From Escherichia phage vB-EcoP-XT73, in sequence record OR757436.1: 64,000 bases of DNA; one strand, written 5' to 3'. How positions within the stretch are numbered: position 1 is the stretch's first letter; each line of letters begins with the position of its first letter. The translations under genes and the position numbers were made by a program. Positions 5,983-35,854 of the stretch are shown here, piece by piece. A model generated the notes under the pieces. The model made no database searches. It was given only the letters and a program-made list of their open reading frames with translations, and was not told the DNA's origin.

Positions 5983-6172
5983 GGAAACCAAAGAGTGAAA
6001 CTAAACCTACCTGAAGAATTACAAGCACATGCCATTATCGTTAGTGGCTGTGTGATGGGTCTTGGTCAAACAAAGAAGATTGCTCATGACTTAGCAAAAG
6101 GTCAGTATAAATCTTTTATTGTTGTTCCTGCTACCCAACGTCATATCAACCTGTTTATTAACAAGGAATAGA

Positions 6173-9155: not shown

Positions 9156-9164
9156 TAATGTATA
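9156..9164 (+). promoter_or_regulatory. TAATGTATA promoter-like motif
   Basis: acttaTAATGTATAct about 40 bp upstream of the 9201 start; shared with 15352. Confidence 0.45.
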
Positions 9165-15085: not shown

Positions 15086-15279
15086 AAGTTATTGTTTTAA
15101 GTTAAGTTTTCTTTTGATTTTAATAGAGAATCAAAGTCCTAGGAGTCCTCAACCTAAATCAAGGATTTCCTCAATTCTCTATTTTTATCTCGCAGGTGTC
15201 TCCTGCCCTTCGGTACTTGCAAGGGTTACGATGATTGCCCAATATACAAGCCTGCAATAGCTTTACTAGCTATACAATA

Positions 15280-15288
15280 TATACATTA
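15280..15288 (-). promoter_or_regulatory. inverted copy of the TAATGTATA motif within an AT-rich intergenic region
   Basis: Plus-strand tatacatta is the reverse complement of taatgtata; it points away from the plus-strand gene at 15419. Confidence 0.3.
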
Positions 15289-15351
15289 CTAGTGTGTTAT
15301 ATCTACTACCAAAGATACTTATATTATATAGTACCCTTATCGGTATAAGCG

Positions 15352-15360
15352 TAATGTATA
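15352..15360 (+). promoter_or_regulatory. TAATGTATA promoter-like motif
   Basis: gcgTAATGTATActatac about 60 bp upstream of the 15419 start. Confidence 0.45.
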
Positions 15361-15418
15361 CTATACATAACCGCTCAAAGAGAGCAACAATCTTTCAAAT
15401 TAAATAAGGAAATTAATA

Positions 15419-16165
15419 ATGAGCATGATCCCAACTATCGCAACTTCTTCTCGTAAATCCAACTACGATATTATCCCTGATGGTGAATATGAAGCACGTA
15501 TCGTTCGTGTAGTAGGTTTGGGTGTTCACAATCGTGATCCTTGGGTTGACCCGAAGACCAAAGCAGTAACTCCTAAGAATCCAGCTTTCCGTATGGATTT
15601 GGCTTTCGAGCTGATTGGTGTTGATGCTACTGGTAAAGATTCCGATGGTAAGGCATTAGAACCACGTCCTGCTTGCCAGTTCAAGAGTTATGATGTAAAC
15701 CCACGAGCTAAGAACTCTGGTATTCTTGATCTCTGCAAGATGATTGACCCAAGCATTCAAGCACTGAAAGGTGATCTGTCTTGGTTTAAGGATGTGTTGT
15801 TAGGTCAGCCTGTTAACATTCTGGTTAACTCCTACACTAACAAAGCTGGTGAAGTTAAAAACTCCATCAAGACCATTTCTCCAATCCCAACCAAATATCG
15901 TGCAGCAGTTGGTGAAGCTCGCAGTCCTCTGGTATTCTTCGAACCGTATGCGGAAACCGATGAGAACGTAGCATCCTATCAACTGATGTTCCCGTTCCAG
16001 CGCAACCTGCTTACTCAAGCTAATGACGCTAAGAACATGCCTCTGGCTGGTCGTGAAATTACTCGTGCTTCTGAAACAGAGCAGAAAGAAGCTACTCCTT
16101 CAATCCCTACGATTGATAAAGAGCCTGCTTCTACTTATGAAGATGACAACGACAGCCCATTCTGA
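15419..16165 (+). CDS. single-stranded DNA-binding protein (candidate)
   Basis: 248 aa ending in an acidic tail with terminal Phe (YEDDNDSPF), as in SSB and T7 gp2.5; located in the replication block. Confidence 0.5.
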   Translation: MSMIPTIATSSRKSNYDIIPDGEYEARIVRVVGLGVHNRDPWVDPKTKAVTPKNPAFRMDLAFELIGVDATGKDSDGKALEPRPACQFKSYDVNPRAKNSGILDLCKMIDPSIQALKGDLSWFKDVLLGQPVNILVNSYTNKAGEVKNSIKTISPIPTKYRAAVGEARSPLVFFEPYAETDENVASYQLMFPFQRNLLTQANDAKNMPLAGREITRASETEQKEATPSIPTIDKEPASTYEDDNDSPF

Positions 16166-16186: not shown

Positions 16187-16212
16187 AGCCACCTTCGGGT
16201 GGCTTTTTTCGT
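16187..16212 (+). terminator. rho-independent terminator
   Basis: agccaccttcgggtggct hairpin followed by tttttcg. Confidence 0.65.
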
Positions 16213-16222
16213 TGGAGTCAAT

Positions 16223-16573
16223 ATGCAAAGCACTTTAAGTGATAATCTAGGATTTGTTATCTTCTCTGCTCTGGTGTTCTTTGGTGGTATGAAGTTTAAT
16301 GAGTACAGAACAGACAGTAACAATCTGGATAAAGAAAAGCATCAACAAGAGTTAGAGATTGAAAGAAGTAAGGCAGCTGATGAAGTTGCTCAGAGAGTTC
16401 TTACCGGTTTATCCAACTGGAAGAAGAACACGGAAACCGTTTATAAAGAGATGCATTATGAGAAAACTAAACCAGTTTTTTATAATGTCTGCGCTAGTGA
16501 TGACTACATCCGCATGTTCAACGAGCGACAGCAGCAGGCAATCGATGCCCTTACCAACAAACCTAAAAGCTGA
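16223..16573 (+). CDS. i-spanin (Rz-like) candidate
   Basis: N-terminal hydrophobic segment LGFVIFSALVFFGGM followed by a charged helical domain; a second ORF starts inside it in another frame. Confidence 0.4.
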   Translation: MQSTLSDNLGFVIFSALVFFGGMKFNEYRTDSNNLDKEKHQQELEIERSKAADEVAQRVLTGLSNWKKNTETVYKEMHYEKTKPVFYNVCASDDYIRMFNERQQQAIDALTNKPKS

Positions 16574-16714
16574 ATGTAGGGTTGACCTGCCTCTTTTAGA
16601 GAGTGCTCAAGGAAAGGCACTAGCCACTACGTTGGAGTGGTATCAGGACCAGTACACAGAATGTGCTGCTAATCACAATGGATTGTTAGAAGCTCTGAAA
16701 GAGCGTGGAGTAGA

Positions 16715-16718
<4 letters not shown>
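16458..16718 (+). CDS. o-spanin (Rz1-like) candidate, overlapping the 16223 gene
   Basis: MRKLNQFFIMSALVMTTSACSTSDSS looks like a signal peptide with a Cys near the cleavage region. It starts inside the upstream gene in a different frame and extends beyond it. The lipobox is atypical. Confidence 0.35.
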
Positions 16719-18091
<1,373 letters not shown>

Positions 18092-34999: not shown

Positions 35000-35491
35000 T
35001 TAATATTTACCTTCGGTATAAAGATCAGCTTCTGCAACCCTTCTGTTATGAAGACCCTGACTTCTCTGCTTCACTCCCTTGACCGTTATCTTATCCCAAC
35101 GAAGAAATTCAGAATATACATCCCCTTTAACATCTCCATTGATAACCTTCCTTAACTTAGATGTGCTCAAAGCCCCACTACCAACATTAAAGTTGAAAGA
35201 GGTGAGTGCATCAAACTCATGAACTAGCAAAGGAACCTTTATGTTCTTCTGAGTAGCACGAACAGAGTCTTGTGTGTCTCTATCTAGCAGAGCTAGACAA
35301 TCCTCTATAGAATACGTTAATCCTTGTCTAACCGGATAACCATTCATATCGCGCGTAGCCCCTACACATATCGTCCAGATACCTGCGGAATCTTTATAAG
35401 CCTTAGTTCTCATACCCTCATGCTTCATGATAAATTCAATTCCAGCTGGGCTTAAGTTTAATTGTACAGGTGGCAATGCGGCGTTATCCAT
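35000..35491 (-). CDS. lysozyme (T4 e-like, GH24)
   Basis: HEGMRTKAYKDSAGIWTICVGATRD places the Glu, Asp and Thr catalytic residues at GH24 spacing. Confidence 0.8.
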   Translation of the reverse strand: MDNAALPPVQLNLSPAGIEFIMKHEGMRTKAYKDSAGIWTICVGATRDMNGYPVRQGLTYSIEDCLALLDRDTQDSVRATQKNIKVPLLVHEFDALTSFNFNVGSGALSTSKLRKVINGDVKGDVYSEFLRWDKITVKGVKQRSQGLHNRRVAEADLYTEGKY

Positions 35492-35520
35492 TTCTAACCT
35501 CCTTTTGTAGTCCCTTTAGA

Positions 35521-35739
35521 TTAAGGTAATATCTTTCTCAGAGCGTTAGATTCAGCATCAGGACAAATAACAACTAAGTTATTTTGAATTATTCTCTGCT
35601 TACATTGAGAACTAAGTTTCTCTACTGGAGCAGGGATATTTACTAATGGGTGAACTGCACCTACAGGAACTGCGGTCGACACCACAACACCTGCACCTAA
35701 ACACACCAAACCATATGCAGCTTGTTTCATCATTTTCAT
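35521..35739 (-). CDS. small membrane protein (holin candidate)
   Basis: 72 aa with one long hydrophobic segment (AAYGLVCLGAGVVVSTAVPVGAV); immediately precedes the lysozyme gene in the direction of transcription. Confidence 0.35.
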   Translation of the reverse strand: MKMMKQAAYGLVCLGAGVVVSTAVPVGAVHPLVNIPAPVEKLSSQCKQRIIQNNLVVICPDAESNALRKILP

Positions 35740-35854
35740 TTAAGTGTCTCCTATATATTAACCTCTTGAGATATATTAGTTTCATTACCCATCAAGAAAA
35801 GGTACTGCTAAAAATTCTTGATGGGCTGTTCTTATCACATATAGAGTATCAAGA

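Follow-up and report, generated by a model that had tools for sequence, protein, structure and literature searches.

An overlapped gene pair with the features of a two-component spanin in the DNA-metabolism block of the phiEco32-like phage vB-EcoP-XT73

Results

The locus and its phage group

The window analyzed, a stretch of 64,000 nucleotides of Escherichia phage vB-EcoP-XT73 (OR757436.1), carries on the plus strand two overlapping genes, an i gene at 16223..16573 (116 aa, defined by the ORF and its translation) and an o gene at 16458..16718 (an 86-aa precursor with a predicted mature form of 67 aa). They are homologous to phiEco32 gp39 (i) and gp38 (o, with its start corrected), respectively, in the numbering of that phage. 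Over the 1.8 kb around the pair, identity was 100% with Escherichia phages vB-EcoP-XT18 and XT32 and 93 to 96% with phiEco32, Paul, SU10, SGF2, and further Kuravirus members, and the window departed from XT18 farther along. By sequence, then, the window is that of a close XT18 relative within Kuravirus, the phiEco32-like podophages. Kuravirus (Gordonclarkvirinae) comprises podophages of Escherichia coli with prolate heads. In all Gordonclarkvirinae examined, the pair was preceded by a gene for a 248-aa protein, which resembled a phage replication-initiation family weakly and below the threshold, and was followed by the macro-domain and sigma-factor (gp36) genes.

The i gene follows a Shine-Dalgarno GGAG (16214..16217, plus strand; 5 nt before the ATG, assigned with the Shine-Dalgarno strings of SpaninDB), and its protein sequence starts with MQSTLSDNLGFVIFSALVFFGGMKFNEY. 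The most hydrophobic 15-residue stretch of the i-protein spanned residues 9 to 23 (LGFVIFSALVFFGGM; mean Kyte-Doolittle value, 2.23), which predicts a membrane helix at about these residues (nt 16247-16291, plus strand), and hydropathy over the full 116 aa gave no second hydrophobic segment. Because the N-terminus carries a net negative charge, as is also remarked in SpaninDB, the positive-inside rule does not make an N-in topology evident, and we assume such a topology here. The AF2 models of both proteins were low-confidence, single-sequence models (pLDDT, 55 to 58) that we used for helix propensity only, and in that of the i-protein helices covered residues 5-30, 37-76, 79-90, and 93-111. 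The secondary-structure entry for the phiEco32 i-spanin in SpaninDB reads 88 / 54 / 10 (PMC6139136), which we took as 54 helix and 10 strand residues among 88 periplasmic ones. The only Cys of the i-protein, at position 90 in the motif N-x-C, was invariant in an alignment of 12 homologues, as were G22, E80, N88, and N100. Against PHROG 1152, named "Rz-like spanin," the protein scored E = 1.2e-37, with residues 2-116 aligned to positions 5-127 of the 127-position profile.

The o-protein opens with MRKLNQFFIMSALVMTTSA followed by CSTS; two basic residues precede a hydrophobic core free of charges, and Ala at -1 and Cys20 come next. From this we predicted a signal peptide over residues 1-19 (nt 16458-16514, plus strand) and lipidation of Cys20 (nt 16515-17) behind the lipobox TTSA. 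The residue at +2 is Ser, the Asp of Lol avoidance being absent from that position. The signal matched a pattern like PROSITE PS51257 and the lipobox in its relaxed form, [ILMFTV][^REKD][GAS]C. It missed the strict consensus [LVI][ASTVI][GAS]C on account of the Thr at position -3, where Met is found in close relatives and Leu in ECBP2. Past Cys20, a Ser/Thr/Pro-rich linker leads to a predicted C-terminal helix (residues 50-82 in the low-confidence AF2 model) that bears the invariant Cys69, and another Cys lies at position 40; the 67-aa mature protein as a whole is not proline-rich, with only 3 Pro. Residues L4, C20, T22, G52, C69, N74, and L76 were invariant in 10 homologues, and the protein matched PHROG 2425, an unnamed family, with E = 2.9e-27. 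A weak Shine-Dalgarno-like AGAG (16447..16450, plus strand) lies 7 nt before the o gene ATG, within the i coding sequence, and is marked as a Shine-Dalgarno sequence in SpaninDB and as a ribosome-binding site in phage Paul.

We scanned all six frames of the 64-kb window for ORFs with lipoprotein-like N-termini and compared the result with shuffled sequences. Three lipobox ORFs were found against 1.3 expected, and the o gene was the only convincing one; the other two, at 5995-6171 (plus strand) and 39162-39040 (minus strand), were weak and were judged spurious. A lipobox-bearing ORF by itself is thus not above chance, and it is conservation that shows the pair to be real.

The start of the o gene matters in this respect, since in XT18, phiEco32 (gp38), IME267, and others the gene is annotated as 57 aa from an internal Met30 (window position 16545). 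Translation from Met30 would yield a soluble protein with no signal peptide, and there would be no spanin unit. Gene callers have chosen this start in many deposited genomes, the Shine-Dalgarno sequence before 16458 is weak, and a lipobox ORF of such quality arises by chance about once per window, all of which would suit the shorter gene; the pattern of substitutions in the overlap, and the homologues, are what we set against it.

Dual coding in the overlap

The two genes share 116 nt (16458..16573, plus strand), comprising i gene codons 79-116 plus the stop, and codons 1-38 plus part of codon 39 of the o gene, whose reading frame is +1 with respect to that of the i gene. Substitutions were analyzed in 9 distinct Kuravirus/Suseptimavirus sequences, with five close Kuravirus contigs from IMG/VR used. 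Over the 9 sequences, 24 of the 116 sites in the overlap were variable, versus 156 of 376 outside it (64/142 in the part coding for o only and 92/234 in the part coding for i only, the latter count being slightly inflated since the first ~20 nt were misaligned in the three sequences with an i-spanin shorter by one codon). Wobble positions of the i frame varied at 51 of 78 sites in the i-only part versus 13 of 39 in the overlap (P = 0.0015), and those of the o frame varied at 39 of 48 sites in the o-only part versus 6 of 38 in the overlap (P = 1e-9). Wobble periodicity was lost within the overlap, and variation past 16573 followed the o frame. Overall, this pattern indicates that both frames are translated and that the overlap is under dual constraint.

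Suppression of i-frame synonymous sites extended over exactly the stretch upstream of Met30, which argues against a start at that codon. The 29 upstream codons were also open in every homologue, down to 25 to 30% identity, with the basic n-region, the hydrophobic core, the invariant Cys, and Ser/Thr at +2 all kept, whereas conservation of Met30 itself did not extend beyond the Kuravirus and Suseptimavirus sequences in the comparison. Kongari et al. likewise record that the annotated o-spanin start was shifted upstream to recover the lipoprotein signal (PMC6139136). We regard the Met30 start as very improbable and take the o gene to begin at 16458.

The first-pass annotation had described a 116-aa protein with an N-terminal membrane anchor and a helical body, overlapped in another frame by an 86-aa protein with a signal-peptide-like N-terminus and a Cys near the cleavage region, and had likened the arrangement to overlapped spanin genes. 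Our analysis bears out each part of this description: the ORF at 16223-16573 has its hydrophobic segment at residues 9-23, helices are predicted for its body both in the low-confidence AF2 model and in the SpaninDB table for phiEco32, and the ORF at 16458-16718 has TTSA before Cys20. The signal peptide and lipobox check proposed there was run by pattern, with the fit to the relaxed lipobox and the PS51257-like pattern and the miss of the strict consensus (Thr at -3) given above, and the 116-nt overlap, the +1 frame, and the adjacent i-then-o order are those of overlapped spanins.

Homologous pairs in other phages

By tblastn against phage records, the o-protein was found in 359 records and the i-protein in 451, with overlapping coordinates in the records that the two shared. 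We extracted the pairs from 12 phages of six lineages, at protein identities of 25 to 40%: Kuravirus and Suseptimavirus; 9NA-like siphoviruses with Bas82 and Klebsiella e270.2; Proteus Gorganvirus; the P2-like ESSI2_ev239; Felixounavirus and Mooglevirus; and Erwinia Kolesnikvirus. In all 12 pairs, the i gene encoded an N-terminal transmembrane domain and the o gene lay in the +1 frame with an overlap of 107 to 164 nt. The lipobox Cys was followed by Ser/Thr and then Thr in 12 of 12, and an invariant i Cys (N-x-C) and an invariant C-terminal o Cys (C-x4-N-x-L) were present in every pair. Most members had Cys40 of the o-protein; the Felix O1-like and Erwinia members lacked it. Both subunits of the Felix O1-like phages (Felixounavirus, Mooglevirus, and Kolesnikvirus), of the 9NA-like phages, of Bas82, and of ESSI2 are homologous to those of XT73 and share the +1 overlap. 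The tblastn link between the Kuravirus o-spanin and the Felix O1 ones was weak (E = 1e-3 to 1e-8), and in the clustering of Kongari et al. the Kuravirus o-spanins form a family apart from them (PMC6139136).

These alignments also bear on whether the two frames could be parts of one protein, the anchor of the first being fused to the Cys-containing C-terminal domain of the second by programmed +1 frameshifting, or the frames being separated by a sequencing error. The frames do overlap by 116 nt, and the helical o C-terminus with its conserved Cys bears a superficial likeness to the C-terminal domains found in some Rz-like proteins. Against a fusion, the i gene ends in all lineages with a conserved C-terminal domain and a stop codon of its own, and the complete, conserved secretion and lipidation signal of the o gene would be meaningless inside a fused protein; an identical arrangement in dozens of independently sequenced genomes excludes a sequencing error. 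We give a fused product next to no credence and continue to treat the locus as two genes with separate products.

The genomic setting of the homologues differed among lineages. In Bas82, FSL SP-062, and Klebsiella e270.2 the gene order was holin, endolysin, a small membrane protein, and then the homologous i/o pair, and in the P2-like ESSI2_ev239 the pair stood directly behind holin and endolysin. In the Felix O1-like phages the pair had rIIB and a polynucleotide kinase of the pseT type as neighbours, and the lysin lay elsewhere. The XT73 pair differs in position from the siphovirus and P2-like pairs, being located in the sigma-factor/DNA-metabolism block while they are located in lysis cassettes.

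The pair had been catalogued before. Kongari et al. (2018) list the pairs of phiEco32, NJ01, ECBP2, and KBNP1711 as overlapped ("ovl") spanins with a 116-nt overlap, the phiEco32 coordinates being 35417-35768 for the i-spanin and 35272-35533 for the o-spanin with 116 nt shared (PMC6139136). In SpaninDB, the i-spanins belong to family "JH2," together with the Felix O1-like phages, and the o-spanins to family "NJ01," the four members of which are those of phiEco32, NJ01, ECBP2, and KBNP1711 (PMC6139136). In phage Paul, annotated by the Center for Phage Technology, the orthologues are labelled i-spanin (TMpred transmembrane domain at residues 8-23) and o-spanin; the latter, 95% identical to the XT73 protein, has the lipobox MSAC and a LipoP SpII score of 18.03 with cleavage between residues 19 and 20. 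The spanins are also mentioned in later Kuravirus genome papers. The pairs of phiEco32, NJ01, ECBP2, KBNP1711, and Paul are the same genes as those of XT73, at 72 to 95% protein identity with point differences only, and the phiEco32-group pairs match XT73 in protein lengths (116/86 aa), the 116-nt overlap, the position of the lipobox, and the upstream hairpin and Shine-Dalgarno sequence. The spanin pair of the phiEco32-like phages is hence already known, having been catalogued in 2018 and annotated in several genomes. In the literature, we found no genetic or biochemical test of any member of this spanin sequence family.

Lysis partners and position

The predicted lysis partners lie on the minus strand: a lysozyme-type endolysin at 35000..35491 (PHROG 7 endolysin, E = 5e-47; phiEco32 gp17, "lysis protein") and a 72-aa holin-family gene at 35521..35739 (PHROG 11161 holin, E = 1.3e-47; phiEco32 gp16, "putative holin"). 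They were found about 18.3 kb from the pair and on the opposite strand, between tail genes, so that the XT73 pair shows no linkage to a lysis cassette. Such linkage to holin and endolysin is common for spanins and is not obligatory. The first-pass annotation had placed the pair in the replication block, some 19 kb from the lysozyme and holin candidate at 35.0-35.7 kb, and had found this odd for a spanin. The placement agrees with the sigma-factor and DNA-metabolism block in which we found the pair, and the distance is close to the one we measured. The remote position is real; its oddness did not hold up, because the position is normal for the phiEco32-like group and has precedents in T4 and the Felix O1-like phages. 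Remoteness is therefore neither evidence against the spanin reading nor a novelty.

Position does enter into another reading, in which the genes encode a real membrane protein and a real lipoprotein whose main job is not lysis but superinfection exclusion or receptor masking, comparable to T5 Llp or the lambdoid Cor-type proteins. Such a role would fit a pair that lies in a middle-class cluster and is separated from holin and endolysin by 18 kb and by strand. It fits less well with the homologues, since homologues of both subunits close holin-endolysin cassettes in unrelated phages, and obligatory pairing and the +1 overlap are hallmarks of spanins (PMC6139136). The T4 spanins, which are also located away from the holin and endolysin genes, are proven lysis proteins. 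Furthermore, the six-frame scan of the 64-kb window yielded no other credible lipoprotein or spanin candidate, and none next to the endolysin, whereas most phages of Gram-negative hosts have a spanin; the genomes in which Kongari et al. failed to find one amounted to only about 13% (PMC6139136). A principal role other than lysis consequently seems improbable to us, and we keep to the spanin reading.

Transcriptional context

In phiEco32, the cluster of DNA polymerase, nucleotide-metabolism, and sigma-factor genes belongs to the middle temporal class, and holin and endolysin lie within the oppositely oriented late cluster (PMC8948821), as they do in XT73. A hairpin resembling an intrinsic terminator (GCCACC-UUCG-GGUGGC plus T6; 16187..16209, plus strand) was found between the 248-aa gene and the Shine-Dalgarno sequence of the i gene, 4 nt before the ribosome-binding site, and is annotated as a terminator in Paul. 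It was nearly invariant across Kuravirus and Suseptimavirus loci, while Suseptimavirus coding DNA was about 78% identical. From these features we infer that the hairpin functions as a terminator, and because of where it lies, transcription that enters the spanin genes must read through it.

An exact match to the consensus TAATGTATA, published for promoters of the phage sigma factor gp36 (PMC8948821), is located at 15352..15360 (plus strand), some 60 nt upstream of the gene for the 248-aa protein, and is a candidate middle promoter that may feed the spanin genes by read-through. Matches with one mismatch allowed were not enriched window-wide (19 found versus 21 expected); apart from the cluster at 15.27-15.37 kb, the five exact matches alone seem to carry meaning, and for this reason the link between promoter and spanin genes is worded here as a possibility.

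Early or middle synthesis would be compatible with a spanin model by analogy with lambda. In that phage, intact peptidoglycan restrains the Rz/Rz1 complexes, which stay inactive up to the action of the endolysin. The hairpin and the middle operon might together provide early, attenuated dosing of the spanin, or, alternatively, the lipoprotein made early might have a second role besides lysis, such as superinfection exclusion; we consider both ideas speculative and improbable.

Discussion

We conclude from sequence comparison that the overlapping genes at 16223-16718 very probably constitute the two-component spanin of a phiEco32-like podophage (Kuravirus). In terms of the features by which two-component spanins are recognized (Summer et al. 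2007; Kongari et al. 2018), we found a transmembrane domain, a signal peptidase II signal, the characteristic order and frame, and periplasmic Cys residues. Assignment of a lysis function rests on architecture, genomic context, and analogy with other spanins. The present analysis provides the ORFs, their signals, the overlap and the dual-coding constraint on it, the conservation, and the lysis-cassette linkage of homologues; processing, localization, disulfides, complex formation, membrane fusion, and the timing of expression are modelled on the lambda and T4 paradigms.

Following those paradigms, the i-spanin would be a type II inner-membrane protein, anchored at its N-terminus, with about 90 residues in the periplasm, mostly helical. 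The o-spanin would be made from its own start inside the i gene, cleaved before Cys20 by signal peptidase II, and lipidated, and Ser at +2 would allow Lol sorting to the inner leaflet of the outer membrane. Each subunit would probably form a covalent homodimer through conserved Cys residues (Cys90 of the i-spanin and Cys69, with or without Cys40, of the o-spanin), and the periplasmic domains of the two would bind each other through the peptidoglycan mesh. The complex would be made from the middle-class DNA-metabolism transcription unit and then stay idle until the late holin and endolysin destroy the murein, upon which the freed complexes would fuse the outer membrane or disrupt it and thereby bring lysis to completion.

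With lambda Rz/Rz1, the prototype of the class, the XT73 pair shares a type II inner-membrane protein, an outer-membrane lipoprotein encoded in the +1 frame, and periplasmic cysteines. The lambda genes are embedded, whereas those of XT73 are overlapped and lie outside any contiguous lysis cassette, and the XT73 o-spanin is longer and has a predicted helix, whereas Rz1 is a proline-rich unstructured chain. At Pfam, neither protein matched PF03245 (Rz) or PF06085 (Rz1) at E <= 0.1; the i-protein gave only a chance match to DUF7333 (E = 0.024, below the cutoff) and the o-protein gave none. An NCBIfam scan likewise gave no match for either protein.

T4 PseT.3/PseT.2, a separated two-component spanin validated by experiment, complements lambda Rz/Rz1 amber mutants (PMC6139136). 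Its subunits are of 117/83 aa as published (PMC6139136), close to the 116/86 aa of XT73, and as with the XT73 pair its genes are placed among those of nucleotide metabolism, a long way from the holin gene t and the endolysin gene e. The o-spanin of XT73 also resembles that of T4, as described by Kongari et al. (PMC6139136), in having a predicted C-terminal helix and cysteines. The two pairs differ in that the genes overlap by 4 nt only in the T4 record and by 116 nt in XT73, and in that the T4 i-spanin has no Cys while that of the XT73 family has one that is invariant. We had suspected homology, because the sizes match and the Felix O1-like homologues adjoin a pseT-type polynucleotide kinase, and rejected it on hhalign probabilities of 0.9% (i) and 13.9% (o), with only the transmembrane domain or the lipobox aligned. 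On these comparisons, the XT73 proteins are spanins by architecture and belong by sequence with PHROG 1152 and SpaninDB family JH2, and they are not sequence relatives of the lambda or T4 spanins.

Beyond annotation hygiene the significance of these results is small. The 57-aa "hypothetical protein" call in XT18, phiEco32, IME267, and others hides the lipoprotein signal of the o-spanin, and a correct inventory of lysis genes has some applied value because Kuraviruses are in development for therapy against avian and uropathogenic E. coli. Three loose ends at the locus are the conserved putative terminator directly upstream of the pair, the Thr at position -3 of the lipobox, and the widespread misannotation of the o-spanin start.

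Start and lipobox of the o-spanin and comparison with other phages

In several records, the o-spanin gene is called from an internal Met (window 16545-16718) as a 57-aa "hypothetical protein." This call, found in XT18, phiEco32 (gp38), IME267, 101114UKE3, and at least one Kuravirus published recently (loci L002, L007, L008, and L013), is a mis-call that conceals the lipoprotein signal; XT18 is nearly identical to the window throughout the spanin region. The −3 residue of the lipobox (window 16506-16517) is Thr in XT73 (TTSA|C), as it is in XT18 and XT32, whereas in relatives this position is occupied by Met (T/S-M-S-A|C) or Leu. Thr at −3 could weaken processing by signal peptidase II or could be a tolerated variant.

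In the Felix O1-like phages Maleficent, Rouille, and Mushroom (loci L006, L009, and L011), the gene for a polynucleotide kinase of the pseT type is followed, a few genes farther downstream, by a homologous spanin pair, and pseT.3/pseT.2, the validated spanin genes of T4 (locus L015), are placed likewise. No homology was detectable between spanin proteins of the Felix O1-like type and those of T4, and their shared position may reflect positional convergence or replacement inside a conserved neighborhood.

The 72-aa "holin" (window 35521-35739, minus strand; PHROG 11161) contains three Cys residues and one hydrophobic segment, which is N-terminal and resembles a signal peptide or signal anchor. 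For Kuravirus ZCEC16, too, a paper from 2026 reports a predicted signal peptide only and no TMD. The protein therefore seems to be a putative holin.

Regulatory elements and genes flanking the spanin genes

A terminator-like hairpin (GCCACC-UUCG-GGUGGC) followed by T6 ends 4 nt upstream of the i-spanin Shine-Dalgarno sequence (window 16187-16217, Shine-Dalgarno sequence included). Since the hairpin and T6 are near-invariant in Kuravirus and Suseptimavirus loci, compared to only ~78% identity in coding DNA, they suggest that entry into the spanin, macro-domain, and sigma-factor genes is marked by a conserved element, either an attenuator or one that forms an RNA end. Directly upstream of the spanins, a 248-aa protein (window 15419-16165, plus strand) corresponds to phiEco32 gp40 and belongs to PHROG 6599, a family of unassigned function; in NCBIfam, the entry "phage replication initiation protein, NGO0469 family" matched it weakly and below threshold (24.9 bits, where the cutoff is 75; E = 1.3e-5).

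The 330-nt intergenic region at window 15086-15418 contains, inside 100 nt, four matches to the promoter consensus of the gp36 sigma factor, TAATGTATA, at 15271-15279(−), 15280-15288(−), 15352-15360(+), and 15362-15370(−). Two of the four are exact and lie on opposite strands, and the region may hold middle promoters that are divergent or regulated. Elsewhere in the window, the consensus is matched exactly at 9156(+), 24625(−), and 39686(−).

Downstream of the sigma-factor gene, ~650 nt are missing at window 17813-17826 compared with Paul, XT18, and phiEco32. The gene for a GTP-binding protein is absent, as is the N-terminal half of the dNMP kinase gene. The remnant, an 89-aa open reading frame (window 17822-18091) beginning at the sigma-factor stop, matches the dNMP-kinase PHROG over the C-terminal half of that family only (positions 89 to 176) and also matches Pfam DUF3310.
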